From Patescibacteria group bacterium (GTDB taxonomy: Bacteria > Patescibacteriota > Patescibacteriia > JAHIZJ01), in NCBI GenBank assembly GCA_041650335.1, contig JBAZLK010000004.1, positions 15,990 through 79,989 on the forward strand: a stretch of DNA of 64,000 nucleotides, in the 5' to 3' direction. The translations under genes were made by a program, and so were the position numbers. The notes beneath the pieces are model-generated. The model saw only the letters and a program-made list of their open reading frames with translations, was not told where the DNA came from and did not search any database. Positions 38,386 through 63,027 of this stretch are shown piece by piece (the first letter of the stretch is position 1; each line of letters starts with the position of its first letter).

Positions 38386-40443
38386 TTAATATAGCGTTTG
38401 ACTTGAGACTATTATTTCAGGCTTATTGTCTCGGTTGATATCAGCGGTTGTGACCGTAATTCCTGACCGCCAGCTCTCTTTATAGGCAAAGAAACCAGCC
38501 ATCACCGCCTTGCCAAACTGGTTGAAAATACGGACATGCGGGCCGCCACCTGGCCCGGCCCCTGTAATAATTTCATCTTTTCCATCATTATTCAAATCAT
38601 CCGAGGCGACCGATACCCCGCCGCGGAAGTTTTTGTCGTAGGCAAAAAAGCCAGACAACGGACGGCCAAAACGACTGAAGACCCTGACGTGCGGCCCGCC
38701 ACCAAAGCCCGCGCCGGTGATTATCTCATCCTTTCCGTCGCCATTCATATCGCCGACGGCTACGTGGACGCCGCCGCGGAAGTTTTTGTCGTAGGCAAAA
38801 AAGCCAACATTTACTAACCCGCCGCGGGCGTTAAATATCCTGACATGCGGACCGCCACCGGGCCCAGTGCCGGTTACAATCTCCTTTTTTTTGTCGCCAT
38901 CCAAGTCGCCAACGGCCAGATTGATGCCGCGATTGTACGACGTTCCGTAGGGATAAAACTCACGAATTAAAAAGCCAGCCTGATTGTAAACTTGAACTTT
39001 ATTATTCCACGCAACAACAGTTTCAATTGTTCCGTTGTCTGTTAAATCGGTCTTAATAATATTTACGCCGCCGGCATATTCGGTCGTATAGGTAAAAAAG
39101 CCTTGGCGGACTTTCCGACCGGTGGCGGAGAAGGCTTCGGCTAACCACCCGTTCGTGTACTGACCTTCGGCTATTTCAAACTGGCGTTTATAGACGATGA
39201 GTCCGTCGCGTGCCGGCAGCGTTACCGAACTGACGATTTCACCAGTGTTGATTGTCGGCGCTTGCTTGCCTTTTATTTTTTCATAACCAGCGCCTAAATT
39301 CACCCGCTGGCTCGTATTGGTAGAATTAATCAAGACTACCCCGTTCGTGAAATCGCGGCGCCAGACGCCAGCCGTTGTAATCGGAGCGGCGGCGTTCTGA
39401 ACGTTGTAGGCGGAGCCGTTCGGCCGTCCGAGCGAAACGTCGTATTCATCATACCACCAGAGATCAGCGTGCCGATACATCCCAAAGTCAAAGCTGGCAA
39501 AGCCGTTTCCCAGCAGTACGCTCGCCAAGGAATAGCGTAACGAGCGATAATCGTCCGATGTGCCCGTGGTTGTGCTGCTATTGATAATTATTACCGACGG
39601 CGCCTGGGCTCGATCCTGAGCGTCAAGATATTTTTCCATTGAGCCGCCCCAGCCGCCGTCGAGATTTGTCGGAAATCCTTCAAATAGCCGCCCGTTGATC
39701 GAATCAAAATATTGACCACCACCACCACCGACAATAATTTTTTCGTCGCCTTCTAATTGCCGAGAGTAGCGAAGCATGGCGCTCATTCCGTCGCGCCAAG
39801 CCCGGTCGAGCACAGCAGCGCTCTCTTTCTGACCGTCACGGTTGAGATCAAGGTTGCCGCTATGTAACCAGGAAACGTCGTTCCACATATTGTCGTAGTA
39901 GATGCCGTCCCATAAGCCGGTCGACATGACGTTTTCGTGCACAAACTCCGGCAGATACGTATTCCAGCGCAAGCCATTAACGCGCGCTGCGGCATTCGTT
40001 ACGTTCATCATCCTCGTGCCCGGCCAAAAGACAACCTGTCCACCCTGGGCATCACGCAAAAACCACTTACTTGATAGGCCGTGCGTTAATTTGTAGTTTG
40101 GGTGGTTTTTGTCTGTTATTTCAAACATGCTGTCTGGCAATTCCTGCGATGACATGTAGGCTAAAATGATGATATCCGGATTTATCAGGCGCATCAGCCG
40201 AATGGCATCAGGGCTCGTGTACTGATTCTCCATGCTGATAATGACCGCATCCCACCGCGCCAGGCCTTGCGCTTCGCTGATTGTCAACTTCGGAGTGTAA
40301 AATATGTTGGCCAGTCTCGGGTAGGGATTATCTAGCGTTCGCGCGTCAACGCTTTTTGGCAAACCAAATAAAAACGCAGTTATCGCAATGAGGGCGATCA
40401 CGCAATGATAGCCGAGTCTATTTTTTGCCAACCAGCGATTCAT
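38386..40443 (-). CDS. Secreted protein: N-terminal glycoside-hydrolase-like domain + C-terminal FG-GAP/VCBS-type repeats
   Basis: signal peptide; C-terminal half contains at least 4 repeats GD[LMI][ND][GN]DGK[DK]EI[IV]TG[AT]G[PF]GGGPHVR[IV]F; same DNA repeat (gccgccgcggaagtttttgtcgtaggcaaaaaagcc) appears twice in 38600-38810. Confidence 0.55.
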   Translation of the reverse strand: MNRWLAKNRLGYHCVIALIAITAFLFGLPKSVDARTLDNPYPRLANIFYTPKLTISEAQGLARWDAVIISMENQYTSPDAIRLMRLINPDIIILAYMSSQELPDSMFEITDKNHPNYKLTHGLSSKWFLRDAQGGQVVFWPGTRMMNVTNAAARVNGLRWNTYLPEFVHENVMSTGLWDGIYYDNMWNDVSWLHSGNLDLNRDGQKESAAVLDRAWRDGMSAMLRYSRQLEGDEKIIVGGGGGQYFDSINGRLFEGFPTNLDGGWGGSMEKYLDAQDRAQAPSVIIINSSTTTGTSDDYRSLRYSLASVLLGNGFASFDFGMYRHADLWWYDEYDVSLGRPNGSAYNVQNAAAPITTAGVWRRDFTNGVVLINSTNTSQRVNLGAGYEKIKGKQAPTINTGEIVSSVTLPARDGLIVYKRQFEIAEGQYTNGWLAEAFSATGRKVRQGFFTYTTEYAGGVNIIKTDLTDNGTIETVVAWNNKVQVYNQAGFLIREFYPYGTSYNRGINLAVGDLDGDKKKEIVTGTGPGGGPHVRIFNARGGLVNVGFFAYDKNFRGGVHVAVGDMNGDGKDEIITGAGFGGGPHVRVFSRFGRPLSGFFAYDKNFRGGVSVASDDLNNDGKDEIITGAGPGGGPHVRIFNQFGKAVMAGFFAYKESWRSGITVTTADINRDNKPEIIVSSQTLY

Positions 40444-41635
40444 ATATTGTAATGAGTTTCTGATAATATTTTTCGGCTAGGAATTGATCAGAAAACGCCG
40501 TTGCGTTCTGTCCCATTTCATCGACCCGGCTGATATTTTCTGTCACGAGTTGAATTTTCTTTCTCAGGTCGTTTGGCGAGCCGAGCTTGAAAGTATACCC
40601 CGTTTGGCCCTCGTGAACAAGCTCGGGAATACCGCCGATTTCAGTGGCGATAACGGGCTTGCCATGCTGATAAGCTTCTAATATTACGAGTGGGCAATTT
40701 TCATACCATTGCGACGGCACAATAACCGCCAATGATTTACTAACCAAATCTGATAATTCGTCGCCTTCGCGATAACCAAGGAACGCAACATTCTCCATCT
40801 TTTCGGTTTCAACGCGATGCTTCAGTTCTTTTTCTAATGGGCCGGTACCGACAATTTTTAGTTTTGACGGCAATCCCGCAAATGCCTCGAGTAATAGCGG
40901 CAGCCCCTTTTCTTCAGACAGTCGCCCGACGTATAAGAAGTAGTCGCCGGTGACTTTTTTCGTTGGCGCGGTCTCCGTTACAAAATTGTATATTTGCTCA
41001 ATCCGCTTGGCGCGTATCCCCCAGCGTTTCAGCTGTTCCGCCATGAACATACTCGGACAAATGAAAACATCGACATTTTTTTCGTACAGTTGTAGTGACT
41101 TATGAAGGTACATCTCAAGCGCAGACAAGGTCGAGGCGACGGTTGAATCTTTTATACATCGGTGCCGGATACACTTATAGTATGCACCACCAAACGCGCA
41201 TTCGCAGATCTTACCGTGGCAGAACAGGGCATAATTCGGCGACAGTAATTTATAATCATGAAGCGTCTGTACGATCGGAATATTTCGTTTCTTTATCGCT
41301 GATAATATTGAGGGGGATATTTGGTGGTAAATATTGTGGACGTGCACAAGGTCCGGTTTCTCAGCGTCCAGCAACCGACTGATTTTCCGGCGCGCCTCGA
41401 ACGAATACAGCATCCTACCGGCCGTGCGTAATCCTTGCCAATTCAAGGTGACGTTTTCGAAGTTAACGTTTGAAACAAAATACTTCGAATAGGCTGACGG
41501 GATGTTTTTCTCGTCGCGCATAGAAAAAACGACAACCTCGTGGCCATGCCGTTCGAGCATTTCTTTCAGCTCAAAGAAGTGTTTTTCGGCCCCACCCTTC
41601 AGGTAGTAAAACTTGTTGATCAGCAATATTTTCAT
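40418..41635 (-). CDS. Glycosyltransferase family 4
   Basis: GT-B fold signatures (LLYVGRLSEEKG, EGFGLV-like LVILEAYQHGKPVIAT); 405 aa. Confidence 0.75.
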   Translation of the reverse strand: MKILLINKFYYLKGGAEKHFFELKEMLERHGHEVVVFSMRDEKNIPSAYSKYFVSNVNFENVTLNWQGLRTAGRMLYSFEARRKISRLLDAEKPDLVHVHNIYHQISPSILSAIKKRNIPIVQTLHDYKLLSPNYALFCHGKICECAFGGAYYKCIRHRCIKDSTVASTLSALEMYLHKSLQLYEKNVDVFICPSMFMAEQLKRWGIRAKRIEQIYNFVTETAPTKKVTGDYFLYVGRLSEEKGLPLLLEAFAGLPSKLKIVGTGPLEKELKHRVETEKMENVAFLGYREGDELSDLVSKSLAVIVPSQWYENCPLVILEAYQHGKPVIATEIGGIPELVHEGQTGYTFKLGSPNDLRKKIQLVTENISRVDEMGQNATAFSDQFLAEKYYQKLITIYESLVGKK

Positions 41636-41794
41636 ATTGATATCATACCATTAGTAAAACAACACAGTATAGCAATTATTATACTTCTTGTCAATGCCTC
41701 CTGGCCATACGGATTGACAAAAAATCATTTCAGTGTATATTTATACGTCCGGTTACTGATAGCTTTTCGACAACCTTTGCCATGGGGGTATCCA

Positions 41795-43141
41795 ATGAGA
41801 GGAACCTGGGTATTTGTAGCTGCCTTTCTCATGCTTGCTGGAGTCTGCTGCGCGCCGACATCGCCGCCGCTGACTTCTCAGCAGCCCGCGACCGTGTCGA
41901 CCCAGTCAGTTACTCCTCTCAAGCTGGACTTTGGTTCGGTTTCACCAGGTTGCTCGAACTCGTTGAGCCTCAGGGTGAACAACCTGACGGCCAACCCGAT
42001 CGAGAGCTCGGTGAAGTCGTCGAACAAACACTTCTCGGTCAATCCGTCGGTTATCACTCTCCAGCCGTTCGAGTCTCGGCTGCTCACCGTTACGTACTCG
42101 CCTCTGAAGCACGGTCGGCACAAGTGCACGATCAGCTTCGGGGCGAGGAACCTGAAGACGGTGAAATGCCAAGGCCGCGGCGGCGAGAACAAACCGACCC
42201 GCGACAAGTACTACTGGCCGTTTTCGATCAGCAGCATCTGGAACACGCCGATCGGATCCGAGGCGCACTATGTCTCGGCCGGCCTGCGGCCCAGTCTCTG
42301 GATCGCGCCCGACAAGGAGTATCTGTACTTCGAAGGACGCGAGCGACTGCTCTACGGAAACGGGAAGTGGCCAGGAGAATGCAGCGGCAGCAACGAACTG
42401 GCCAAGATCATCGTGCCGGACGGTGCCTTGATCCCCGCGAACGACGGCAACACGACCTCGGCCTTTGTCTTGGCTGACGGAAACACCGTCTACCAGGCAA
42501 ATCCGACCGCCCGCTGTGATCCCACCGGCCCCGCCTATGCCGGCTGGAAAGCGCCCACCGTCAACTTGTATGGAGATGGGATCGGCGGCGGTCATGGCGG
42601 ATCGAGCCTGGCTACGCTCGGTGGTTCTATCCGCCTGGGCGAGCTATTTAGCCTCGCCCCGATTCGGCACGCGCTGAAGATCGACATCTGGATGGCCCGG
42701 CACGGATCGAAAACCCAGTCAGGCTTCCGCTGGCCGGCCGCGCGCGCCGATCATTACTACCTGCGGGAGTACGACAAGGAGGGCGTCGCCAAGCCGGCCG
42801 TACGCATGGGTTGTCTACTCGCCATTCCGTCCAACATGAACCTCGATTCGCTGGGGCTGAAAACCGACCCGGCAATGAAGATCGCCCAAGCGTTACGCGA
42901 TTACGGGGCCTACGTCGTCGACGACTCATACTGGGATGCCGTCAACCTGTGCGTTGAGAGCGGTGTCCCGGCCGAATTCGCGACTCGCTGCGGCTACGAC
43001 TTCAGCCAACAGTCCGGTGACTGGTACGACGACATGATGAAGCTCTTCCAGCTCCTTTGCGTCGTCGACAACAACACTCCGACAACCGTCGGTGGCGGCG
43101 GACTGCCGCTCGTACCGCCAGCACCGCCGATCGGCAACTGA
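41795..43141 (+). CDS. High-G+C secreted hypothetical protein (signal peptide + Ig-like N-domain + unknown C-domain)
   Basis: start refined to ATG 41795 (MRGTWVFVAAFLMLAGVCC signal/lipoprotein-like peptide) because the longer ORF-track start would overlap the upstream GT4 gene and the AT-rich promoter TTGACA(41725)-N16-TATATT; markedly higher G+C than flanks; spurious overlapping ORFs in all frames. Confidence 0.5.
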   Translation: MRGTWVFVAAFLMLAGVCCAPTSPPLTSQQPATVSTQSVTPLKLDFGSVSPGCSNSLSLRVNNLTANPIESSVKSSNKHFSVNPSVITLQPFESRLLTVTYSPLKHGRHKCTISFGARNLKTVKCQGRGGENKPTRDKYYWPFSISSIWNTPIGSEAHYVSAGLRPSLWIAPDKEYLYFEGRERLLYGNGKWPGECSGSNELAKIIVPDGALIPANDGNTTSAFVLADGNTVYQANPTARCDPTGPAYAGWKAPTVNLYGDGIGGGHGGSSLATLGGSIRLGELFSLAPIRHALKIDIWMARHGSKTQSGFRWPAARADHYYLREYDKEGVAKPAVRMGCLLAIPSNMNLDSLGLKTDPAMKIAQALRDYGAYVVDDSYWDAVNLCVESGVPAEFATRCGYDFSQQSGDWYDDMMKLFQLLCVVDNNTPTTVGGGGLPLVPPAPPIGN

Positions 43142-43166
43142 TCCCCTACTCGAACCTTCTGCCTAC

Positions 43167-43198
43167 GCCTGGCCACATTCGTGACCAGGCATTTTTTT
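43167..43198 (+). terminator. Intrinsic terminator after high-GC gene (GCCTGGCCAC-attc-GTGACCAGGC + T7)
   Basis: 10-bp stem with one bulge immediately followed by ATTTTTTT. Confidence 0.5.
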
Positions 43199-43238
43199 AT
43201 TAAAAAAGAGGCTTTGCCCTCTTACTATTTTATCATAA

Positions 43239-43898
43239 TTAAAACACAACCACGAAGTCCAACGGAATGAAGACCAATCGATTTTTTATTATCGTATAGT
43301 TTGTATACCCAGCCGCTTGCAATAATTTTCGCAGCGCACGTTCTGACAACAGATGCATATAGTCGCCGGCCGCCCATTTCCGATTTGTTCTTTTGATAAT
43401 CGCGTCGAACCACGGTTTTGGCAGATAGTGCAGTAATGGCAGACGCGTATGCACTTCAAACGGAAACATTCTATTAGGCGTGGTCAGATAACCATGCTTG
43501 GCCACGCGGCGTATTTCTTGTAAAAACACCAGTTGTTTCTGTGAATTACCAACGTGTTCGATTACCGCATTTGACCAACAAATATCGAACTGACGTTCGT
43601 CAAAAGGAAATTTTCCGCCACGATACGTTACGACGTTTACGGCCGGATAGCGATGCCTGAATTCGTCCGCCTGATCAACTCCGAGCGCGGTAATATTATG
43701 CTGATATGGAAAATGTTTTTCTAAATAATTATCGGTCTCGCTATACTCGCGTTCAGTGAAACCGACGTCGAGTATCTTTACATTCGGCGAAAGGGTGAAC
43801 GTTTTGATAAAAGCGCGCCACTTCCGGTTTCTATTGTATTCTGATATTTTGTAGGCTAGCGACATTTGATGATTTTCTAACTGCTTCTCAGTATACAC
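43239..43898 (-). CDS. Class I SAM-dependent methyltransferase
   Basis: KILDVGF motif I, ~219 aa, methyltransferase type 11-like. Confidence 0.65.
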   Translation of the reverse strand: MYTEKQLENHQMSLAYKISEYNRNRKWRAFIKTFTLSPNVKILDVGFTEREYSETDNYLEKHFPYQHNITALGVDQADEFRHRYPAVNVVTYRGGKFPFDERQFDICWSNAVIEHVGNSQKQLVFLQEIRRVAKHGYLTTPNRMFPFEVHTRLPLLHYLPKPWFDAIIKRTNRKWAAGDYMHLLSERALRKLLQAAGYTNYTIIKNRLVFIPLDFVVVF

Positions 43899-46714: not shown

Positions 46715-47275
46715 CTACTGCTTCCCGACCCAGGTCCAGGTGCCGTCGGCGTTCCAGATGGGCCGATACCCGCCGAACTGCTGGCCCTTGTCGTTCTTGG
46801 CCCGACTCGGGTGGTTCCAGGTCCACGGCCAGGCCGTGACGCCGTCGGCCGAGGGTCGGCACCAGAGGTAGCACCCCTCGTCCTGGCACTTGCATTCCTT
46901 CAGCGGGATGACGAACTCGACCGCCTGGCTGCCATTGCCCACGTTCGCCACCGTGGGATCGGTTTCGACGCAGAGCAGGCCGCTCAGTCCGACCGTGTAG
47001 GGGCCGGGAACGGGGGTCTGGCCCGACCATTCGATGGCCTTCGGAAAGCTGACGAAGATGCGGATGTGCCACCCGTCAGCAGCCAGATACGAGTCGATCG
47101 GGTTCTTGTCCGACAGGGTCGGACGCGCCGGAGCCGCGGGAGCCGGGGTGACCGCCGCCTTCGCGCTGTCAGCCGGCGGCGGAGCCACCTGGCTGTCCTT
47201 GATCTCGGCCAGCGCGGGCTGGACGAGCGCGAACGTGACAACCGCGACCATGAGCACGAGCATGAGCTTCTTCAT
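46715..47275 (-). CDS. High-G+C secreted hypothetical protein, Cys-containing (186 aa)
   Basis: start refined to ATG at 47275 (MKKLMLVLMVAVVTFALVQPALA signal peptide) with SD GGAGGAATGGAGAA upstream; Ala/Pro-rich linker then domain with CxC...C...C (KECKCQDEGCYLWC). Confidence 0.45.
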   Translation of the reverse strand: MKKLMLVLMVAVVTFALVQPALAEIKDSQVAPPPADSAKAAVTPAPAAPARPTLSDKNPIDSYLAADGWHIRIFVSFPKAIEWSGQTPVPGPYTVGLSGLLCVETDPTVANVGNGSQAVEFVIPLKECKCQDEGCYLWCRPSADGVTAWPWTWNHPSRAKNDKGQQFGGYRPIWNADGTWTWVGKQ

Positions 47276-47333
47276 TTCTCCATTCCTCCGTGGGTTTGAG
47301 TTTCCGAACTTGCTACTAGGTCGTGGCGGGAAC

Positions 47334-48221
47334 TCAGGGGTTCCCGCCGATGTGGATGCCGTAGAGCCGTTCATCTCCGTCCCTGGGGTTCTTGAACTCC
47401 CCGGAGCCGGTGATCGCGTACTCGAAGGCACAGTACCCATTACCCAGATCGTGGATACACTTCAGGAGCGTCGCCTGTTCGAAGTTGTCTTCCGGACCGA
47501 AGTAGACGCCGGCCCGGAGTTCTTCGCCGGTGAGCTTCTGAAGCCTCAGGTAGCCCTTGGACGCCTTCTTGACCATCACCTTCTCGTTCTCGGTGGTCCA
47601 TCGCCCGCTGACGAACTCCATTGCGTGAGCACGATCGCGGAAGCCGGTCCATGTCCCCAGCCATTCGACCGGCTGGGTAGGATCGGCGGGCCAGTTTCGC
47701 CCGTCCGGCAGTCCGGTACCGGTGTACCAGATCTGCGCCGAAATCAGGGAATCAGGTCCGTCTGGGGACACCGCGATCGCCCCGTTCTCGAGGTAGACCG
47801 AGAAGGAACGACAGGTCTCCCACTCATTGGAGCCCGCCGATCCCTGAATCCGAGTGCCGCCGACCGAGATGTCGACCATCCGGTAGTAGCGGCTGTCGGC
47901 CGGATTCTTGGCCCAGAACCAGACTGGGATGCCCTTCTCGTTGCCCCACGACCACCAGAGGTAGTCCCCCTCGACGTGGCCGTCGGCATAGGTGGCAAAC
48001 GGCATCCTGATGTTCCGATCCTGTTCGTATCCAGGCACGACCGGACCGCTGATATACACCGGCCAGCCGTCCTCGGCCACCGCGCACGTCGCGGAAAAGC
48101 CGAGCGTCATCTGTTCCTGCTCGGACAGCCCGGGCGCGGTCATCGTCCACTCGTCACGGCTGCAGCCCAGGGGCATGATCGCCACCAGGACCAGCAGTGC
48201 CACCAACACATACCTGCGCAT
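47334..48221 (-). CDS. High-G+C hypothetical lipoprotein/secreted protein (295 aa)
   Basis: start refined to ATG 48221 (MRRYVLVALLVLVAIMPLGC - signal peptide ending in Cys) with SD GGAGGAAACCGAAG upstream; Trp/Gly-rich beta-type sequence. Confidence 0.45.
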   Translation of the reverse strand: MRRYVLVALLVLVAIMPLGCSRDEWTMTAPGLSEQEQMTLGFSATCAVAEDGWPVYISGPVVPGYEQDRNIRMPFATYADGHVEGDYLWWSWGNEKGIPVWFWAKNPADSRYYRMVDISVGGTRIQGSAGSNEWETCRSFSVYLENGAIAVSPDGPDSLISAQIWYTGTGLPDGRNWPADPTQPVEWLGTWTGFRDRAHAMEFVSGRWTTENEKVMVKKASKGYLRLQKLTGEELRAGVYFGPEDNFEQATLLKCIHDLGNGYCAFEYAITGSGEFKNPRDGDERLYGIHIGGNP

Positions 48222-48244
48222 CTTCGGTTTCCTCCTTCTTCCTT

Positions 48245-50068
48245 CTACCAGCTGTGGTCGAGGCTGATCCCCGCCCACTGCCGGTCCGTGTGGTACACCT
48301 TGCCGTTGACCAGATCCCGGTCGACGGCATCATTCAGGTACTTGAAGTTCCCCTTCAGACGCCACCACCGGTTGATCCGATACTCAATTCCGATCCCGGG
48401 GCCACGCCAGTCGAATGACCAGCTCGGGTTGTCGTACGACCAGGAGTCGTACGAGGCGTAGACGATGATGTAGTGGTTGAACTTGTACCCGATCCGTCCC
48501 TCGAACACCTGCATGGTGTCGGCCGGGAAGGACAGGGTCTGGTTGTCGAAGTGCCGTGACTGTCCGCGGCGGTACTGGACGTCGTACGACGCCCGGAAAT
48601 ACAACGGGTGCGGTTCAATCGAGAAGCTCCCCCCGATCTCGCGATCAAGGTTTGTTCCGCGCTTGAACATCGCCTCGTAGTACCCCAGCTTCGGGGTAAT
48701 GCCGAGCACTCTCGCGTATCCTCCGTAACCATCGAAGTACCGTGCGTCCTCGCGCGCCTTGATGGTCGTGGGCGAAATCTGCCGGTAGTTGATGAACTCG
48801 CGCTGGCCGGCCAGATACCAGGCGCCGGCTTCAAAGCCCGTACGCCAGGCACCCGCCTCGTCGCCGAGGATCCACCCCCGGCCGCCGAGCCGGTAATCGC
48901 CGGACACGTGATTCTTGTCCAGCGACGCCTGCTCGATTCGGATGACAGTCGAGAGATCGCGTAGGCGACCCCAGCCGTCGTAGCCGGAAATCCGTGGCAG
49001 CCACTCCAGTCCTCCCAGGAACGAATGCTGTCGGTCAAGGTTACCCTTCCGGTCTTTCCCGCCCTGGGAATACCGGTAGTCGAGCCACCAGACGCCGCCC
49101 GAGACGAACTCGTGAGACACCTCAGGCTCTTGGGCGTAGAACGGCCCTTCCACCTTGGGCTGTCGAGCCGACTCAGGCGGCGACACCGTCACCTGGCTTT
49201 CGGCTTCGTCCACGAACGCTCGCCTGACATAGGCGGCGTTGCCGCAGACGACGAACCGATACAGGTGGTACCGGTAACCCTCGTAGTCCACAAAGGGATA
49301 TTCGAGGGCAACGGTCCGGTCGACCGACTGTCGCGACTTCGGGTCTTTCCAGAAGCAGGCCGTCCTGCCCCAGGAAATGTTCTTGCCAAAACACAGGCCG
49401 TCGACGATGAGCGGTGACGCCTCAGTTGAGTACATCCAGACACTGTCCGGCGTACTCGCTTCAACGAGGCTCACCCACTCCGCCCGAACCTGGTCCGGTA
49501 CCTTGAAGGACTTGATCTGGTCCTTGAGCGGCGTCCGAGCCGGATCACCGCCGAGGAATTCCCAGCGACGGATGACCTGTTCGGGCTTCTGCGTGAAGAG
49601 ATGCTCGCCCGGCAGGACATACCGTCGATCAAGACCATTCCAGGCTCGAAGAGTATCAGCCGGAACGCCCAGCTCCTTCGAGAGGGCTTTCCAGCCTTCA
49701 CCCGGCTTTACGACTCTGGTGGGTGGCAACCGGATGGGTTCCGGCTGCTTTTCCGAGCGTTTCAGTTCGAGCTTGGTATCCTGGACGGCGACCCAGTTGG
49801 TTGAGTCGCAGTAGGCCAAGACCCGGTACTTCACCCAGAAGGCGTCCTTCCCCGTCTGTTCGACGCAGAAGTCCGTGGCCTTGGGCACCTGTATCCTGAC
49901 CACGCGGTCGTTCACCAGAACGCCCACGTCAACCGTGTTCCTGCCATTCGGCAAGCTCACGGCCTTCAGGTTGATAACGGTGCCCACCGGGGGCTGCGTG
50001 CACTGAGCCAGTGCATTGGTCGAGAAGACCAGCGCGCAGACGAACAACAGAACCGTGAACTGCTTCAT
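48245..50068 (-). CDS. High-G+C secreted protein with LysM-like domain and C-terminal beta-barrel-like region (outer-membrane-protein-like)
   Basis: signal peptide MKQFTVLLFVCALVFSTNALA; LysM-like segment VKPGEGWKALSKELGVPADTLRAWNGLDRRYVLPGEHLF; C-terminal ~300 aa with alternating hydrophobic/aromatic pattern rich in Y/W/G/R ending in ...ISLDHSW (terminal aromatic); SD GGAGGATTCGGTC before ATG. Confidence 0.5.
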   Translation of the reverse strand: MKQFTVLLFVCALVFSTNALAQCTQPPVGTVINLKAVSLPNGRNTVDVGVLVNDRVVRIQVPKATDFCVEQTGKDAFWVKYRVLAYCDSTNWVAVQDTKLELKRSEKQPEPIRLPPTRVVKPGEGWKALSKELGVPADTLRAWNGLDRRYVLPGEHLFTQKPEQVIRRWEFLGGDPARTPLKDQIKSFKVPDQVRAEWVSLVEASTPDSVWMYSTEASPLIVDGLCFGKNISWGRTACFWKDPKSRQSVDRTVALEYPFVDYEGYRYHLYRFVVCGNAAYVRRAFVDEAESQVTVSPPESARQPKVEGPFYAQEPEVSHEFVSGGVWWLDYRYSQGGKDRKGNLDRQHSFLGGLEWLPRISGYDGWGRLRDLSTVIRIEQASLDKNHVSGDYRLGGRGWILGDEAGAWRTGFEAGAWYLAGQREFINYRQISPTTIKAREDARYFDGYGGYARVLGITPKLGYYEAMFKRGTNLDREIGGSFSIEPHPLYFRASYDVQYRRGQSRHFDNQTLSFPADTMQVFEGRIGYKFNHYIIVYASYDSWSYDNPSWSFDWRGPGIGIEYRINRWWRLKGNFKYLNDAVDRDLVNGKVYHTDRQWAGISLDHSW

Positions 50069-52540: not shown

Positions 52541-54034
52541 TTATCGAATGGAAAATATTTTTATCTTACGCAGAGCCTGGATGGCCAGCTGGAGGCGCTC
52601 CGTGCTTTGCGCGTAAATCGTGTATGTCGGATCGCCTTTTTTGATTTTGTTCCCGATGCGCTGATGCAAATGCAAACCGGCAAGTTTTTCCTCAGGGGCA
52701 CCAAGAAAGCGCGCAACATCATCAATCACCGCGTCGTCGATATCTTCCAGCGTTCCGCTCCGGTTGGCATAATATCTCTTTTTATACGCGCCGAGGGTGA
52801 CACGGTCGGCTTTGATATTTGGGTTGCCGCCTTGAAGGGCGATGATTTTCTGCATCTTCTTCCAGGCGCGGCCAGAATCTAAAATTTGATAGGCGACCTC
52901 ACGGCCCTTCCCTTTCCGGCACTGACCGCACAGTTCCAGGAGTTCGCCGGCTAACGCAATCGACTTCCGTTCCAGGTCACGCGGCCGCAAGGGATGCCGT
53001 TGCAAAACGCGCAGGACATCGCGCGCTTCCAGGGCCGGACCGACGCCGCGGCCGACCGGTTCGCGCGCCTCACGCATTTGAACTTTTATTTTCATGCCGA
53101 ACCGTTTTCCAAGATAGAGGAATTTCCGCTCGACCTCCCAGGCCAGCTTAACATTCGGGATCTTCGTCGTCGGCCCAACCGGCATATCGATAATCAAATA
53201 CTTGATCCCCATGGCGACTTTCTTGGCCATGATGCTGACAATCATCTTGTTGTAGGGCTCGATACCGAGCGGATGCGAAGCCCGGATAATCCGGTCGTCC
53301 GCCGGCGCGACGTTCAACTCGCCACCCCAAACCAAGCAGCAATTATTCTTCTTCACAAAGTTCGTTATTCGCCGAACCGTATGCTCAACAGGCGCCAGGA
53401 CTTCCATCGTATCGGCTGTGCCGGCGGCTGAGGTGACCGCACGCGACGATGTTTTTGGTATGACCAGGCCGGTCGAGGCGACAATCGGCACGACGATCAT
53501 TGAGGTGCGGTTGCCCGCTAATCCGCCGACGGAATGTTTATCTACTACCTTGCCCCGAAAATTCAAGCGTTCACCCGTTTCAGCCATAGCCTTTGTAAGG
53601 TAATACAGTTCCTCGTCTGAATAGTGGCGGGCAAAACTGCTGGCGATAAAATAGCTGATTTCGCTTTGCCCGAGCCGGCGATCAACAATGTCTTTTATAA
53701 TCGAGTATATTTCTTTGTATGACAGCCTTTTCCCGAGCAGCTTTTTAATAATGGCCTGGATCGAGGCGGGCCGCGCCAGCACCTTTACCTGGACGATTTC
53801 ACGCTGGCGCAATGGGTATTCCTCCCAGATCTCGCGAAACAACCCGATTTCCCCCGGCCGCACTTTTGAGTTCGTAAAGTCGGCTTCGGCAATGACCCGA
53901 CGCTTGCCCCAGCGTATCTCTAAATCATCGCCTGGTTGAACGCCAAAATTTCGCGCTTCTGATTCGCGCAACACCGCGACAAGCGCTCCCTCTGCTTTAA
54001 AGTCAAGTTTCTTGCTTTTTAAGAAAAATGGCAT
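52541..54034 (-). CDS. AMP phosphorylase (thymidine phosphorylase family, archaeal-type)
   Basis: 497 aa with N-terminal extension relative to thymidine phosphorylase; DKHSVGGLAGNRTS phosphate-binding motif; immediately downstream of RuBisCO and R15P isomerase genes. Confidence 0.8.
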   Translation of the reverse strand: MPFFLKSKKLDFKAEGALVAVLRESEARNFGVQPGDDLEIRWGKRRVIAEADFTNSKVRPGEIGLFREIWEEYPLRQREIVQVKVLARPASIQAIIKKLLGKRLSYKEIYSIIKDIVDRRLGQSEISYFIASSFARHYSDEELYYLTKAMAETGERLNFRGKVVDKHSVGGLAGNRTSMIVVPIVASTGLVIPKTSSRAVTSAAGTADTMEVLAPVEHTVRRITNFVKKNNCCLVWGGELNVAPADDRIIRASHPLGIEPYNKMIVSIMAKKVAMGIKYLIIDMPVGPTTKIPNVKLAWEVERKFLYLGKRFGMKIKVQMREAREPVGRGVGPALEARDVLRVLQRHPLRPRDLERKSIALAGELLELCGQCRKGKGREVAYQILDSGRAWKKMQKIIALQGGNPNIKADRVTLGAYKKRYYANRSGTLEDIDDAVIDDVARFLGAPEEKLAGLHLHQRIGNKIKKGDPTYTIYAQSTERLQLAIQALRKIKIFSIR

Positions 54035-54042
54035 CGGTTATA

Positions 54043-55284
54043 TTATCTCCAATAATGTAATGCGGTCTGTAATTCTGGATGCGTTTTCGCGTAATCCGAC
54101 AATCGTTGATGCGACGTGACGGCCTCAACGGCCTGTTTCGCCGCCCGAGCGCCAGCCAATGTCCCGCCGGGGTGGCCGTGAATGCCGCCGCCAAAGTTAA
54201 TGATCACGTCCGGTCCAATAATTTTGAGCAATTTCGGCACCAGCCGAGGATGGAGTCCGCCGGAAGCGATCGGCATGACCGGTTTTATATTTCCCCAGGG
54301 TGACTTCAAAAAGGTATTGATAGCGACTGTCTCCCGCGCCGAACCTTCCATTTTTCCAACGACTGTGCCGCTATGGAGTTGATCAACGCCAGCCAAACGG
54401 GCGAGTTTTGCGATCACGAGCATGGAAATACCGTGCTTCGGATCGCGGGTCATGACCGAATGCATGGCTCGATGAGCATGGATGATCAGTCCGGTCTTCG
54501 CCTGCCGGACCGCCTGAACACCGGCGAAACCCGCTGTCATAATATCTATCATCGCGCAGTTGCCGCCAGATTGCTTAATGAAACGCGCCCGTCGGATCAT
54601 TTCGCTGGCCGGAGCAGTAATATTAAACACACACATTTTTCGCTCACCGGTTTTCTTTTCAATTTCCTTTGCTAATCGTAGTGTTTCGCGAACCCTTTTT
54701 TGAAACGGATTAAATCGTTGATCGGTTAAATTCTCGTCGTCCTTCACGAGATCGGCCCCGCCCAGAAAACAGTCAGCGGCAAATTTCGCATGTTCGCGCC
54801 ACGACAAACCCATTTTCGGTTTCATGATCGCGCCGATGAGCGGCCGTCTTGGTACACCGAGCAGGCGCCGAATGCCAACGATACCGTGCGCCGGTCCCAG
54901 GAACGAATGAAGGAACGCCGCCGGCATTTTTAAGTCCTCAAGACGAAGCTTGGTAATGAGTTTCATCGAAAATACGTTCCCAGCGACACTCGATAAGAGT
55001 TGCGGGATATTACCAGGCTCGAAGAGTTCGAGCGGATAGGCGATCCGGACAAGCTTGTCGTTCGGCGATACGGAAATAACTTTTGCTGAGAGTCGACGAA
55101 ACATTGCCGCCTTCATCGTCTTGGTTGTCGTCCACGTGCCGACTGACGATTCGGCGGCCACGATTTGGGCACTGTCTCGCAATGGAACGGGTGATTCAAT
55201 TCGAAATGTGACGATAATATGAGTCGCCGTGTTTATGCGTTTTCCGAGGGCGAGATAATTTTGTTTGAGGTAACCGCTCTTCAT
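54043..55284 (-). CDS. rbcL: Ribulose-1,5-bisphosphate carboxylase/oxygenase large subunit, form III-like
   Basis: 413 aa; GTWTT, KPKMGLS, GGADLVKDDEN (carbamylated Lys region), RAMH, SGGLHP...FGGGIHGHP motifs; no small subunit gene; AMP-pathway neighbours. Confidence 0.9.
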   Translation of the reverse strand: MKSGYLKQNYLALGKRINTATHIIVTFRIESPVPLRDSAQIVAAESSVGTWTTTKTMKAAMFRRLSAKVISVSPNDKLVRIAYPLELFEPGNIPQLLSSVAGNVFSMKLITKLRLEDLKMPAAFLHSFLGPAHGIVGIRRLLGVPRRPLIGAIMKPKMGLSWREHAKFAADCFLGGADLVKDDENLTDQRFNPFQKRVRETLRLAKEIEKKTGERKMCVFNITAPASEMIRRARFIKQSGGNCAMIDIMTAGFAGVQAVRQAKTGLIIHAHRAMHSVMTRDPKHGISMLVIAKLARLAGVDQLHSGTVVGKMEGSARETVAINTFLKSPWGNIKPVMPIASGGLHPRLVPKLLKIIGPDVIINFGGGIHGHPGGTLAGARAAKQAVEAVTSHQRLSDYAKTHPELQTALHYWR

Positions 55285-56195
55285 TTCAGTAACCAGGGGT
55301 AATGCTTATTTACATACGCCCGCACCCGGCTCGGCTCAATCAAGCCGAATTCAGTAACAAGTCGGGTAATATTCTTCGCTGGTACGCGGTCAAATGCGAA
55401 ATTAATGATATTGACACCGACCGGCGCATCGGCCCAGACTTCTTTTGCCGACCGACGCTCAATAGGGGTGGCGGCCGATCGGCTGTATTTTAATAAACTG
55501 CAAACGATATAGACCGGGACCCCTTGTTCGGACGCCGCCAGTGTCAGGCCATAACTCCCAATTTTGTTTATTATTGATCCATCGGCGGAAATGACGTCAG
55601 CGCCGATGACAACCGAATCCATCATGAGCTCTTTGCCGGAAGCCTCGCTGACCAAAAACGGACCGGCACCGTCGACGACAATCGTAACCGGTATTCTTTT
55701 TGCCTGTAACTTCTTCGCAGTAATATGCCCCTGATACAGCGGCCGTGTTTCGGACGCGAAGACGTGAAATTTCTTTTTTTCGTGCGTTTTAACGAGAAGC
55801 TGTTCGACGGTTGACGAATGACAATGGGTGTAGACTTTGTCACCTGTTTGAATGAGGGCCCGGCCAAGGAGACTGATGCGTTCTTGGGTTTGCACCAGCA
55901 AGAGAAGGAATTCAGCGGTTGATCTTTTGAGAATGAATTTTGTCGGTTGGCGCCGGACGCGGTCCCAAACGAACCGCAGGCCGTTCTGAGCCAGTGGTTC
56001 GGTCGGCCGGTTGTTCCGCCAGAGATAGTTCCGAGCGGCCTTCATTTGAGACAGCCAGTTCGTGGTCCGTCTCAGTTGCAACCGAACGCCAAAGTCGCAA
56101 TAGGCGTTGAGCGTTGCCCGGGCAACCTCGGTGGCGCCTTGATATTTGAACGTTTGGATATCTCGCAAAACTCGATCAAGCTGTCCGTATGACAT
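55281..56195 (-). CDS. Ribose-1,5-bisphosphate isomerase (eIF-2B alpha/beta/delta-like, e2b2 family)
   Basis: 304 aa; eIF2B-like fold signature (VYTHCHSSTV, VIGADVISADGSIINKIGS); 4-nt overlap with rbcL. Confidence 0.75.
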   Translation of the reverse strand: MSYGQLDRVLRDIQTFKYQGATEVARATLNAYCDFGVRLQLRRTTNWLSQMKAARNYLWRNNRPTEPLAQNGLRFVWDRVRRQPTKFILKRSTAEFLLLLVQTQERISLLGRALIQTGDKVYTHCHSSTVEQLLVKTHEKKKFHVFASETRPLYQGHITAKKLQAKRIPVTIVVDGAGPFLVSEASGKELMMDSVVIGADVISADGSIINKIGSYGLTLAASEQGVPVYIVCSLLKYSRSAATPIERRSAKEVWADAPVGVNIINFAFDRVPAKNITRLVTEFGLIEPSRVRAYVNKHYPWLLK

Positions 56196-59413: not shown

Positions 59414-59709
59414 TAGGCATGAATGCCAAACCGCATGATGATCTTTTCATACCAGCGCTGCTGTTTCGACAGATTATCTTCCGAATGTAGCGTTGGCATA
59501 ATAAAAACCCACTCAGCTCGCTGGGCGGGATTACATACTCTAAACCGTTGTGAATTTCTTTTTATATTTATTTTCATATTATAATTATAGCATATCTACT
59601 GATTTTTGTCTAGCAAAAATTCGATATTCACATATTCCTGTATCTAGCCAAAAAATAATAAACCCTGTAGGATACCGATGGAGTACGACTTGCCCAAGAG
59701 GAGGTGTCC

Positions 59710-60060
59710 ATGAAACGTCTTGTCGGTCACGCGATCGCGTTCTGGACCTGTAACGCCATCGCTCTGATACTCGCTGTTTTGACTCTCTGGCACTTCATTT
59801 ACCGCTCTGACACATCCCCCACGCCCTGGCTTCTGCTGTTCGGCTGGATGGCGTTCACGGTCGTGGCAACGTTTGTTCTGCAGGAAACAGCGCAATCAAT
59901 GATCATGGGGCTTTCGTCCTCCCTCGGGTCACAGACCTTTGCGCCGCTGCTCATCTGCCTCCTCGTGCTCTTTCTCCCTGGCCTGGTCTTCTTCGGCCTG
60001 TACCATTGGGCGCGGCACGCCTACCAACAACGCACCCTGGAACATCACTCTCACGGGTAA
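59710..60060 (+). CDS. Small hypothetical membrane protein (3 TM)
   Basis: start set to ATG 59710, 7 nt after AGGAGG (59697-59702); three hydrophobic helices. Confidence 0.4.
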   Translation: MKRLVGHAIAFWTCNAIALILAVLTLWHFIYRSDTSPTPWLLLFGWMAFTVVATFVLQETAQSMIMGLSSSLGSQTFAPLLICLLVLFLPGLVFFGLYHWARHAYQQRTLEHHSHG

Positions 60061-60094
60061 ACGCGTCCCAACTATCGCTCGCGCCCTTCATCGT

Positions 60095-60122
60095 AAGCAC
60101 CCCTCTCGGTGCTTTTTGTTTT
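60095..60122 (+). terminator. Rho-independent terminator (AAGCACC-cctctc-GGTGCTT + TTTGTTTT)
   Basis: 7-bp stem, 6-nt loop, T-run; 35 nt after stop of upstream gene. Confidence 0.6.
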
Positions 60123-60171
60123 AAAAACTTCCATAATTAGGGGTTTTTCGCTTTTGTGGATAACTACCCCT

Positions 60172-60199
60172 TGACGTTCGGTTTTTGTTCGGTATAATG
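60172..60199 (+). promoter_or_regulatory. Strong sigma70-like promoter (TTGACG-16 nt-TATAAT)
   Basis: TTGACG 60172-60177, TATAAT 60194-60199; ~70 nt upstream of four-helix-bundle gene. Confidence 0.5.
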
Positions 60200-60268
60200 A
60201 AAATAGCCCGAAATTAAAAATGTAAAATTCAAAAGGAAGGAAGACGGCAAGGAACAGAAAAGCCTTTT

Positions 60269-60616
60269 ATGGCTACTGTTACTATTCATCAACGGACACT
60301 GAAATTTAGTATCACCCTTGCCCATTTTCTTCAATCGGTCACTCTGACACCGGAATCAAGAGTCGTCAGAAGCCAAGTTATGCGTTCAGGGTGTTCAATC
60401 GGGGCAAATATTGTTGAGGCGCAACACGGTGCAACAAAGAAAGAGTTCCGGCGTTATATGAGCATTGCCTTGCGCTCTGCCAGAGAAACTGAATATTGGT
60501 TGACGATATTGAGATCACTATTTCCTATCAACTATTCCCAAATAGAGAACATTAATAGAGAAAACAATGAACTTTCAAAAATTATCGCAACGATCATACT
60601 CAAGTCAAAAAGGTGA
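60269..60616 (+). CDS. Four-helix-bundle protein (23S rRNA intervening-sequence protein family)
   Basis: 115 aa; family pattern QVMRSGCSIGANIVEAQ...KKEF..YMSIALRSARETEYWL; no SD near ATG so start uncertain. Confidence 0.65.
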   Translation: MATVTIHQRTLKFSITLAHFLQSVTLTPESRVVRSQVMRSGCSIGANIVEAQHGATKKEFRRYMSIALRSARETEYWLTILRSLFPINYSQIENINRENNELSKIIATIILKSKR

Positions 60617-60655
60617 ACTGCTGTCCTTTAATTCCGTATTTTATAATTTTACATT

Positions 60656-60683
60656 TTAAATTTTGAATTATTAATTCTAAATT
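60656..60683. promoter_or_regulatory. 28-bp imperfect palindrome overlapping lexA promoter (candidate operator)
   Basis: AAATTTTGAATTAT|TTAATTCTAAATTT, 12/14 arms match; directly downstream of TATAAT (60640-60645); 13-mer TAAATTTTGAATT recurs exactly at 61431-61443. Confidence 0.3.
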
Positions 60684-60692
60684 TCCAACCAT

Positions 60693-61349
60693 ATGACCGA
60701 ACGCCTTACTAAAAAACAAAAAGAAATCCTCGACTTCGTCGTCGAGTTTATTAAGGTTAATGATTTTTCTCCTAGCTACCGAGAGATCGCCGACCACCTT
60801 GGCCTCTCCTCCCCCGCTACTATTGCCGAGCATATCCGCGGCCTGGAGGACAAAGGGTTTCTCAAGGCCGACGCCGGCAAGGCCCGTTCGCTCGAACCGA
60901 CCCGCGTGGCCCGTTTCAAAAAAGCGATTGAGTTACCCCTGGCCGGCTTGATTACGGCTGGCGCGCCGATTGAGGCGATCGAAGAGCGGGAAACGATCAC
61001 CGTCCCGGCTGAGATCGTACGCGACGAGAACTCCTACGTTTTGAAGGTTAAGGGCGAATCAATGATTGATGATGGCATTCTCGATGGCGACTTTGTGATC
61101 GTTGAGCGGAGCTTCTACCCGCGGAATGGTGACGTCGTCGTGGCCCTGCTCGACAATACGTATGCCACCTTAAAACGCTACTACCGCGAACGCGACCGCA
61201 TTCGGCTCCAGCCAGCCAACGCGAAGATGAAACCGATTTACGCGAAGAACCCGGCCATCCAGGGTATTGTCCGGGCGATTTTCCGGACGTTCGAACACAA
61301 CTGGCAGAATTATAAGACGTACACCAGAAACTTTCAGCCGGCAAAATAG
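60693..61349 (+). CDS. lexA: LexA repressor (S24 peptidase)
   Basis: N-terminal wHTH (FSPSYREIADHLGLSSPATIAEHIRGLEDKGFL), cleavage-site region (LAGLITAGAPIEA), catalytic Ser in KVKGESM and Lys in TLKR; 218 aa. Confidence 0.85.
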   Translation: MTERLTKKQKEILDFVVEFIKVNDFSPSYREIADHLGLSSPATIAEHIRGLEDKGFLKADAGKARSLEPTRVARFKKAIELPLAGLITAGAPIEAIEERETITVPAEIVRDENSYVLKVKGESMIDDGILDGDFVIVERSFYPRNGDVVVALLDNTYATLKRYYRERDRIRLQPANAKMKPIYAKNPAIQGIVRAIFRTFEHNWQNYKTYTRNFQPAK

Positions 61350-61447
61350 AACACTGAAATTAAAAATTAAGGATTCAAAATTAAAAATAAAAGAATTTTA
61401 TTTCCGGCAGATACCATAATTTTGCATTCTAAATTTTGAATTCTTTT

Positions 61448-61702
61448 ATGTACGAAAAGATAAACGAACCGGTTCACGTTCTGGCTTCCTTTGTCGGGCG
61501 GAAAATCACGCCTCATGCCTTCACCTGGGGACGGAAGCGATACACCGTGAAAAGGCTGAACCTCGTTCATACGAACCGGGTCGGCCGCGAGCTTGTTTTT
61601 TTCTTTTCCGTATCAGACAGTTCAAACACGTTCGTTCTGTCGTTTTCCCCTTCCGCGCTTGCCTGGAAATTAGAGGATCTCTACACGGACGGGTCAAATT
61701 AA
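61448..61702 (+). CDS. Hypothetical small protein downstream of lexA (84 aa)
   Basis: ORF-track start is a TTG; first ATG is 61448; moderately higher G+C than neighbours; no recognised motif. Confidence 0.3.
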   Translation: MYEKINEPVHVLASFVGRKITPHAFTWGRKRYTVKRLNLVHTNRVGRELVFFFSVSDSSNTFVLSFSPSALAWKLEDLYTDGSN

Positions 61703-62129
61703 AAGCCCGCACTCCGAAGAGCCGGGCAAGGACAGAAACGAGAGAAACAATGGAGGAGGGGGCGTCAGACGGACGGCGAAGGACAACCAGCCGAAAGGCT
61801 TTGGTCGTCAGGTGGCTTCTGACACGGTCAGTCTCCGGAAAGACTCGGGAACGGTCAGTTTCCGGAAAACGCCGCCGCGGACGGGCTGCGGGTGCGCGTC
61901 TCAGCGATGGTCCCCTATAGAACCGGAATGTAGCGTCGGTTCTCTCGGCGACGCCCTCCCTCCTCGCTCTCAGTTTTTATCCTTTCGTGGTACAGACCTT
62001 TAGAATATCATTCTCTATTAAAGTGTCAAGAAAATGTGTGGATAAAAACGCAGCCAGCGAAGGCGAGATGGGTGGCTAAAGAAAGTAAAAACCAAAAACC
62101 CACCTCCGCTGTCTCGATTCAGAATACTG

Positions 62130-62520
62130 GGACGGCTCTTTGTAAAGAAAAAGAGCCCGCTCCCAGATGGGATTGGGCCCTGCGCCTGTAACCGGTGAAG
62201 GCCGGGCGCTTGGAGTTCGGACTGAACATAGGCCATGCGCGTAAGCGCTGAACGTCCAACGGAAGGCCGTTGCGTATGAAGCTCCTGGTGGAGCCGTCCA
62301 ACACTCAGCCATGCAGCCACCTCGACCAGCAGTCCGGTCCGGCCGAGGATTTCCTCCCCCACGGAGGTGGCGGAGACGAAAGAGAGCGATGGTGTGAGAG
62401 AGAAGCGAACGTACTTACAGGGTGGAAGCGTGGATGGCGCGGTGCAGACATGAATGACGACGCGATCGGTGGCGCAGGTTCTCCCCGCTTACGAACCACT
62501 GACGGCCGTCTCCCGCGACC
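62130..62520 (+). ncRNA. rnpB: Candidate RNase P RNA (bacterial type A-like, possibly reduced)
   Basis: plus-strand motifs resembling conserved RNase P regions: GGTGAAGGCCGGGCGCTT (cf. GGAAAGUCCGGGCUCC, P4 5' strand), AGGGTGGAAGCGTGGATGGCGCGGTGC (cf. AGGGUGAAAGGGUGCGGUAAGAGCGCACC), GATGAATGAC (exact E. coli-like), CAGGTTCTCCCCGCTTACGA (cf. ACAGAACCCGGCUUAUCG, P4 3' strand); GNRA hairpin GCGC-GTAA-GCGC; boundaries approximate. Confidence 0.45.
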
Positions 62521-63027
62521 CGAGAAAAGCGCTTCCAATCCGACCAGTGTTGGCCAAGAGGTGTCGGATCAGCCTTTGGATAGACCGGCCGGAAGGCAAC
62601 AGATGTCGCACTTCCCCGGAGGCTTACCCTGACGCAAGATCTCGCTTTGGTATCAGAACCAGCTGCAGCCTTTGATGATGCGCGACAGGATCCGCCTAGA
62701 CCTCTTGCGAGATCACCCGGAGAAATCGCCATCACCTGTTCTGAATTTGGAAGGCACTTGAGAATGCCCGTCTCGGCCTTCCTGCGCACCGTAGCGAAGT
62801 TCTTCTTGAGCGCGTGGCCCAGTGCCAAGTACACCGGAGCCCGTCCTGCCGACATTCGCCGGCGTAGACAGGAGTCCGGGCTTTTACGCCTGGGCAGAAC
62901 ACGGCGCCCTCCCCGCTCCTCTCTCACACACGTGTTATCAAAAACGCAGACTTTCATACTACCACGCCCTGTTTGCCTGTCAAGAAAAGAGATTGCATAA
63001 GGTGTGGAAAGATTATTTAAATGGCTT

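Follow-up and report, generated by a model that had tools for sequence, protein, structure and literature searches.

A G+C-rich gene in a surface-polysaccharide locus of Patescibacteria is probably a long-resident unit with a maintained codon bias and a putative glycan-active domain

Base composition and codon bias are known to be poor indicators of horizontal gene transfer (HGT), and genes of atypical composition that are not products of HGT have been described. Polysaccharide loci of the Wzy/Wzz kind commonly encode a dedicated glycanase, and among the known systems closest to the protein considered here are the MltA-type lytic transglycosylases (CAZy GH102; PDB 2g6g, 2pi8, 2pnw, 3czb, and 7esj), which it resembles through a weak fold match. 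The gene for this protein, hereafter the target, lies on a 64,000-nucleotide stretch of DNA from a Patescibacteria group bacterium (contig JBAZLK010000004.1, positions 15,990 to 79,989 of the forward strand), which we call the window and to which all coordinates refer. An earlier reading of these letters, the original prediction, took the target for a foreign insert behind a native promoter and noted its likeness to a second G+C-rich segment nearby. In our analysis, the target is probably a native, long-resident single-gene unit coding for a secreted protein that cleaves or binds glycans, with a G+C excess that arises from a maintained codon bias together with amino-acid composition. The two segments are:

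41795 to 43141, plus strand: target coding sequence, 448 aa, GC 0.612, for a two-domain protein predicted to be secreted or tethered; public assemblies contain an exactly matching gene call
46715 to 50068, minus strand: companion cassette encoding three predicted secreted proteins of 186, 295, and 607 aa

The target resides within a Wzy/Wzz-type surface-polysaccharide locus of a clade of Patescibacteria, or candidate phyla radiation (CPR) bacteria, and its neighbors encode a GT4 glycosyltransferase, a GHL15 protein with FG-GAP repeats, a methyltransferase, a second GT4, a Wzy-type polymerase, a Wzz protein, and a GT2. We compared the locus across five lineages including that of the window, the others being represented by loci L003/L007, L004, L006, and L008. 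Every related locus recovered carries the gene at this one site, in at least four lineages besides that of the window, and none has an empty site. The orthologs have 87-88% (L003/L007), 59% (L004), 45% (L006), and 41% (L008) protein identity to the window protein, share the same two-domain architecture in all four further lineages, and always adjoin the same GT4 gene, from which they are transcribed divergently. Where the contigs reach far enough, the methyltransferase, GT4, and Wzy genes and then the three-gene cassette follow in the same order. Each ortholog is 0.10-0.17 higher in GC (the G+C fraction) than its neighbors, and the finding of orthologs throughout the lineage at similar G+C is the outcome that the original prediction had itself named as refuting it; the proposal of a foreign insert or module is not supported. 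The divergence of the target tracks that of the flanking genes, with protein identities of 0.87 vs. 0.90-0.95, 0.59 vs. 0.57-0.70, and 0.45 vs. 0.47-0.56 for target and flanks, respectively. Locus L007, the single extra locus from a scan of GTDB genomes, lies on a 668-kb contig (CAYJKP010000001.1) titled "uncultured Gammaproteobacteria bacterium"; it is syntenic with the window locus and with NCBI "Patescibacteria group" metagenome-assembled genomes (MAGs) and carries an ortholog 88% identical to the target, and its label is probably wrong.

Signs of mobility were also sought. A tRNA scan of the 64-kb window found no tRNA genes, an Rfam scan of the window had no match, and no rRNA was detected anywhere in it. 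No direct repeats bracketing the target and no integrase were found, the neighbors being glycosyltransferases and a methyltransferase, and a search of a plasmid collection returned no match.

The target has its own regulatory signals, which are listed here with those of its neighbors:

41714 to 41741, plus strand: target promoter, -35 TTGACA (41714-41719), 16-nt spacer, -10 TATATT (41736-41741), 11 of 12 matches
41666 to 41694, minus strand: divergent promoter of the GT4 gene (40418-41635), TTGACA, 17 nt, TATACT, with TG upstream; core bases invariant in alignment A3
41784 to 41788, plus strand: Shine-Dalgarno-like G run, 6 nt 5' of the ATG, read from the sequence
43167 to 43198, plus strand: intrinsic terminator of the target, a GCCTGGCCA/TGACCAGGC hairpin (43167-43190) followed by U7
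43206 to 43223, minus strand: second hairpin, for the convergent methyltransferase gene (43239-43865)

The core bases of both divergent promoters are invariant in all four aligned genomes (alignment A3), TTGACA and GTGTATA being the invariant elements at the target promoter. The original prediction had recognized this promoter correctly, except that it lies about 11 nt upstream of the position given there (41714 rather than 41725), and the terminator that it had placed at 43167-43198 is borne out by the hairpin and U run. Together, the two hairpins have a minimum free energy of -22 kcal/mol (z = -4.1), and the target terminator hairpin is kept in L004 and L006 despite base changes on both arms. 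Where the window has the Shine-Dalgarno-like G run, L004 and L006 have GGAGG and AAGGAGG, and the conserved start is the ATG at 41795 (MRG...). In L003 (6969-6986), an in-frame upstream ATG (MGVNP...) is called as the start, and the same ATG is one base out of frame in the window (41782-41797). As read from the sequence, the target is an autonomous single-gene transcription unit, with a strong sigma-70-like promoter of its own, divergent from the GT4-GHL15 operon, and its own terminator. Same-site orthologs, tracking divergence, the grouping of the orthologs in a single clade of a neighbor-joining tree of C-domains, a conserved promoter and terminator, and the lack of mobility marks together indicate that the gene was already in place in the common ancestor of the compared lineages.

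The composition of the target stands out as strikingly as had been claimed. The open reading frame (ORF) of 448 codons has a GC of 0.612, with 0.56, 0.50, and 0.77 at the first, second, and third codon positions (GC1, GC2, and GC3), while the flanking genes have a GC of 0.44-0.51 (about 0.46) and a GC3 of 0.47-0.60 (about 0.53); the window average is 48.9%. The intergenic region upstream has a GC of 0.355, and the jump coincides with the gene ends, which agrees with the switch at a gene boundary seen earlier. Among 56 greedily called window genes, the target ORF and the three ORFs at 46715-50068 are the only clear composition outliers. About 40% of the G+C excess comes from amino-acid composition, and about 60% from G/C-ending codons in two-fold boxes and Leu. 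The GC1 and GC2 excess goes with extracellular-type amino acids, the protein having more Gly, Pro, Trp, and Cys and fewer Lys, Ile, and Glu.

The codon classes differ in where this excess sits. At four-fold sites, the GC of the target is indistinguishable from that of its flanks in the window (0.71 vs. 0.65, P 0.14), L007 (0.66 vs. 0.66, P 0.93), and L004 (0.55 vs. 0.57, P 0.67), is marginally different in L006 (0.50 vs. 0.43, P 0.09) and L008 (0.63 vs. 0.50, P 0.017), and the four-fold base spectrum is the same as in the flanks. At two-fold sites, 63-75% of target codons end in G or C vs. 32-40% in the flanks, in every one of the five lineages (P = 1e-10 to 1e-16), and all nine two-fold amino acids show this individually; for Leu, the target uses CTN rather than TTR. 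This pattern is unlikely to be residual high-G+C donor DNA, since a donor signal would be expected to be strongest at four-fold sites, which are host-like in the target. Synonymous sites are saturated, with a four-fold-site identity of about 0.32-0.38 in all comparisons except the close window-L003 pair, and the third bases of two-fold codons at conserved amino acids agree at chance level (0.50 observed vs. 0.55 expected; 0.62 vs. 0.62). Because these third bases are randomized between orthologs and still biased in each lineage, the bias must have been re-created per lineage and is maintained rather than a relic. The log ratio of C over U in Phe, Tyr, Ile, and Asn codons is 1.69, 1.72, and 1.78 in three lineages, as the background GC3 shifts from about 0.53 to about 0.40. 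These comparisons point to a maintained gene-specific force on codon choice, whatever its cause, and that force is most likely selection on codon choice.

Two other sources of the bias were rejected. Against biased gene conversion, or an effect of regional mutation, stand the gene-exact boundaries and the unaffected four-fold sites of the target; against relaxed, mutation-only codon usage stands L006, where two-fold GC in the target (0.67) is above the four-fold GC of the background (0.43). The background genes (the 56 window genes with those of L011 and L012) have about 62-65% G+C at four-fold sites and about 40% G/C-ending two-fold codons. This discordance in background synonymous composition suggests a transition/transversion-specific mutation bias or genome-wide codon selection.

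The companion cassette resembles the target in part. The two-fold bias is common to both (0.79 vs. 0.40 G/C-ending in the cassette), and the cassette proteins co-occur with the target in L004, L006, and L007, a point that the original prediction had proposed to check in other genomes. The shared composition that had been claimed holds only in part, because the cassette, unlike the target, is enriched at four-fold sites as well (0.83 vs. 0.65 in the window and 0.69 vs. 0.43 in L006). No near-consensus promoter was found upstream of the cassette. The 607-aa protein (48245-50068, minus strand; P0263-P0265) has only three homologs in 5.8 billion protein clusters, all from Patescibacteria, and no outside donor is apparent for it. 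It has a weak LysM match and, near its C-terminus, a weak match to outer-membrane-protein beta-barrels, and its last residue is Trp; the beta-barrel match is odd, as the lineage is thought to lack an outer membrane.

The encoded protein can be divided into the following parts:

41795 to 41857, plus strand: N-terminal signal/anchor segment (MRGTWVFVAAFLMLAGVCCAP), read from the sequence
41906 to 42142, plus strand: ASH / PapD-like immunoglobulin (Ig) domain, residues 38-116
42194 to 43138, plus strand: C-domain, residues 134-448 (315 aa), of an uncharacterized family, with a predicted double-psi beta-barrel (DPBB) / MltA-like core
42569 to 42646, plus strand: Gly-rich signature YGDGIGGGHGGSSLATLGGSIRLGEL, residues 259-284 (alignments A1 and A2)
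43088 to 43138, plus strand: conserved C-terminal tail VGGGGxPxxPxAPPIGN, always the end of the domain; pLDDT 83-96 in the model

This arrangement agrees with the signal peptide, beta-sandwich segment, and C-domain proposed originally. Residues 1-21 carry positive charge at the N-terminus and continue as a hydrophobic helix that closes with Cys-Cys, and residues 22-37 form a low-confidence linker of P, T, S, and Q; the AF2 model shows a helix at residues 3-17 and gives linker residues 19-25 a pLDDT below 50. The lipobox rule [LVI][ASTVI][GAS]C fails in the window protein, which reads LAGV-CC with V at position -1, and is passed by the 87% ortholog P0002 (LAGA-C); P0003 (SVT-C) fails it, and P0004 has no Cys. 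The protein would be exported or membrane-tethered. The Ig domain matches PF15780 over residues 38-115 (E = 5.5e-12; 46.1 bits vs. a Pfam gathering cutoff of 27), and its beta-sandwich fold agrees with solved ASH/MSP/PapD domains. In whole-protein fold searches, only this domain was matched.

The C-domain is self-contained and has no Pfam or NCBIfam match; it belongs to a large family, with 3,305 representatives of 50%-identity clusters at E <= 1e-3 and 1,104 at E <= 1e-30. The family is typified by stand-alone proteins of about 360 aa from Nostocales and other Cyanobacteria and from Dehalococcoidia. The Gly-rich motif and Pro-rich tail that had been picked out in the target are both conserved family features, residues 259-284 being the most conserved block of the family, with invariant G262, G265, G269, S270, G276, G277, R280, and G282 and nearly invariant H267 and E283. 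Family motifs include WPFxSxSIWNxPIG, YGDGIxGxHGGSGLSxIGGSIRxGEL, IRHALK, YRWPAxRAD, YGAYVVDD, and the C-terminal GGGGxPxxPLAPPIGN. The polar residues N219, Q234, R240, R280, H292, K295, R312, and D319 are invariant (R240 to D319 in alignment A1), and H267, E283, D376, D377, and E388 are nearly so. Candidate catalytic residues are D228, E283, D319, D376/D377, and H292.

The remote-homology check proposed for this domain gave a divided answer. A profile search of the PDB returned 0 matches at E <= 1, and fold comparison gave weak matches to MltA lytic transglycosylases and expansins, both with a double-psi beta-barrel. The AF2 models are confident, and the MltA/DPBB signal is visible only with a model of the C-domain alone. 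In a Pfam scan of 74 family members at E <= 1, none of the 25 families (of 42) listed as most often matched is MltA, 3D, or DPBB_1.

Fusions and phage relatives give a further indication of function. In 58 multidomain members, the partners are fn3 (16), GDSL esterase (6), RTX (6), FG-GAP (6), carbohydrate-binding module (CBM) family 6 (4), F5/8 type C (4), CBM35 (3), PA14 (2), CBM9 (2), and a type IX secretion system (T9SS) tail (2); single members carry ricin-B or GH26, and dockerin and 3-keto-disaccharide-hydrolase-like domains are also seen in the family. The position beside CBMs, esterases, and dockerins suggests an association, and an association only, with modules like those of carbohydrate-active enzymes (CAZymes). 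PHROG 17388, "minor tail protein", matches the C-domain at E = 4e-16 and covers the C-terminal lobe (residues 254-446), which is also matched by Gordonia phage minor tail proteins (33-34% identity by tblastn). Among the nearest outgroups is P0013 (50% identity), encoded beside an SU10-type capsid gene on a phage contig. P0013 (L009 8001-9131; L010 2712-3842) has a dockerin-like N-terminus and lies between the genes for a 2,804-aa protein and the SU10-type major capsid protein, with all genes on one strand, which suggests a virion-associated use of the C-domain. The FG-GAP repeats found in 6 of the 58 multidomain members occur also in the adjacent GHL15 protein (38386-40443), which hints at a functional link between the two neighboring genes.

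Because of the CBM and esterase fusions, the relatives in phage tail proteins, and the location of the gene in a polysaccharide locus, we consider the chances of a glycan-active role for the C-domain to be even or slightly better. That it cleaves a glycan rather than only binding one is a more tentative proposal, somewhat short of even. In such a scheme, the signal/anchor peptide would export or tether the protein, and the flexible linker with the ASH/PapD-like Ig domain would serve as a spacer, anchor, or adhesion module. The C-domain would bind a glycan chain in the groove between its two lobes and cleave it by hydrolysis or lytic transglycosylation. The substrate might be the polymer made by the locus itself, with a role for the protein in processing or release, or, alternatively, the peptidoglycan or another envelope glycan of its own cell or of a host.

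Several other explanations of the locus were weighed. An assembly chimera, joining reads of a high-G+C organism into a Patescibacteria contig, would account for the jump in composition and for nothing else, and we give it practically no weight: identical sequence and junctions recur in assemblies made independently from separate samples (ENA ERZ27247363, Logan SRR8542065, and an NCBI MAG), with orthologous junctions in four further assemblies, so the feature is real and not an assembly artifact. The exact target protein is found on a 368-kb contig, and a 100%-identical homolog of a cassette protein is labeled "Patescibacteria group bacterium" at NCBI. A recent horizontal insert would be a high-G+C donor gene placed behind a host promoter that has not yet drifted to host composition, as the GC of 0.61 vs. 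about 0.46, the sharp boundaries at the gene ends, and the spread of the C-domain family in other phyla and phages might suggest. It is nevertheless very improbable, given a shared site in five lineages, orthologs diverged to 45% identity in step with their flanks, host-like four-fold sites, two-fold sites randomized between orthologs yet biased in each lineage, a conserved promoter and terminator, and no att repeats, tRNA, or integrase found. An ancient transfer is a more serious possibility, only a little less likely than even: the ancestor of the clade may have received the C-domain from a bacterium or phage and fused it to the ASH domain, with vertical descent and domestication since and a codon bias unrelated to the donor. 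The six Patescibacteria sequences in a neighbor-joining tree of 126 C-domains group together as one small clade, inside a family made up mostly of Cyanobacteria, Chloroflexi, and metagenomic sequences, and this reading can also draw on the phage-encoded near outgroup P0013 and on the C-lobe carried by phage tail proteins. However, the tree is without bootstrap support and rooted only at its midpoint, no donor stands out, with a flat identity of 47-53% to all outgroups, and the codon bias is left unexplained.

The codon bias and the function of the C-domain each have a competing account. Ordinary translational selection would make the target and the three cassette genes the most highly expressed of the region, for example as abundant surface proteins. 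The preference for C over U in Phe, Tyr, Ile, and Asn codons is a classic mark of selected codon usage, the log ratio stays nearly constant across lineages (1.7) despite the shifting background GC, and the promoter is near-consensus; we still hold this account to be possible but rather doubtful. Alternatively, the C-domain may be a non-catalytic adhesin or glycan-loosening protein that only binds polysaccharide, as expansins and cerato-platanins do, and serves in attachment to a host cell or matrix. We consider this unlikely, as polar residues that are invariant or nearly so are numerous in the family, the C-domain stands in the place of a catalytic module beside CBMs in multidomain members, and its best fold matches (MltA) are enzymes. 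Our preferred reading, of a native gene under maintained codon selection that encodes a glycan-cleaving or glycan-binding protein, faces difficulties of its own, several of them shared with ordinary translational selection. RRF, GreA, ClpB, MreB, RuBisCO, and aminoacyl-tRNA synthetases including LysRS, in and beside the window, show no codon shift, although such genes are usually highly expressed, and the genes gained by extension beyond both window ends, RRF and other housekeeping genes, all keep to the codon usage of the background; this comparison set holds no ribosomal-protein genes, which limits its calibration. To our knowledge, the G-over-A preference seen here for Lys, Glu, and Gln does not mark optimal codons universally, and it is atypical of translational selection. 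CPR bacteria are slow growers and are not expected to show strong translational selection. Lastly, expansins and cerato-platanins share the predicted DPBB fold and yet only bind. A bolder proposal is that the four G+C-rich genes form a clade-specific secreted module for the cell surface or host interaction, with a codon preference actively maintained by a force other than expression, and that the C-domain defines a new family of glycan-cleaving enzymes, also present in phage tails, with which episymbiotic Patescibacteria open or remodel a cell envelope; we regard it as speculative and rather improbable.

Elsewhere in the window, a thymidine/AMP-phosphorylase-like gene, the RuBisCO large subunit gene, and an IF-2B-family gene adjoin one another at 52541-56195; we take this trio to be the nucleoside-salvage RuBisCO set typical of CPR bacteria, which would fit the taxonomic assignment. 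At 59704-64000 (and on to about 64.3 kb in L012) lie genes for a 116-aa membrane protein, LexA (60693-61349), two small ORFs, and a Y-family polymerase (DinB/IMS) that begins at about 63028. With a GC3 of 0.59-0.72 and a two-fold GC of 0.48-0.61, this block is mildly raised in G+C; it may represent an SOS cassette of separate history. The gene at 60269-60616, which stands alone, belongs to the "23S rRNA intervening-sequence protein" family (PF05635) and is AT-rich, with a GC of 0.41.

The locus offers a clean worked example of a sharp G+C island, bounded by gene ends, that is not necessarily foreign DNA, and the split between four-fold and two-fold sites, combined with syntenic orthologs, can distinguish a bias that is maintained from one that a transfer left behind. 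It is unexpected for a small-genome, presumably slow-growing CPR bacterium to keep a gene-specific codon preference through divergence that reaches saturation. The C-domain represents a large unannotated secreted family of about 3,300 clusters (50% identity) that is frequent in Cyanobacteria and extends to Chloroflexi and phages. Its predicted fold has no close solved relative and its partners are of carbohydrate type, which makes it a good candidate for a new family of the CAZy type. Literature searches turned up no account of this family, nor of conserved G+C-rich genes in Patescibacteria.

Compared with known systems, the N-domain of the target is like the ASH / PapD-like / MSP Ig domains (PF15780, PF22544; choice-of-anchor D) in Pfam score and fold. 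Classic ASH proteins are eukaryotic ciliary or centrosomal proteins, whereas the target is a predicted bacterial secreted protein that carries a single copy as its N-terminal module. The DPBB superfamily of expansins, GH45, cerato-platanins, and RlpA has domains of 90-200 aa; the C-domain, at 315 aa, has an extra alpha/beta lobe and no sequence similarity to them. Actinophage "minor tail proteins" (PHROG 17388; Gordonia phages KidneyBean gp21 and Forza gp90) are homologous to the C-terminal lobe of the target but match only about half of the C-domain, and they are themselves uncharacterized and part of virions. Like the known genes of atypical composition that are not products of HGT, the target combines an atypical G+C content with what appears to be ancient residence; it differs from them in that its signal is confined to two-fold and Leu codons and has been re-established in each lineage after saturation.

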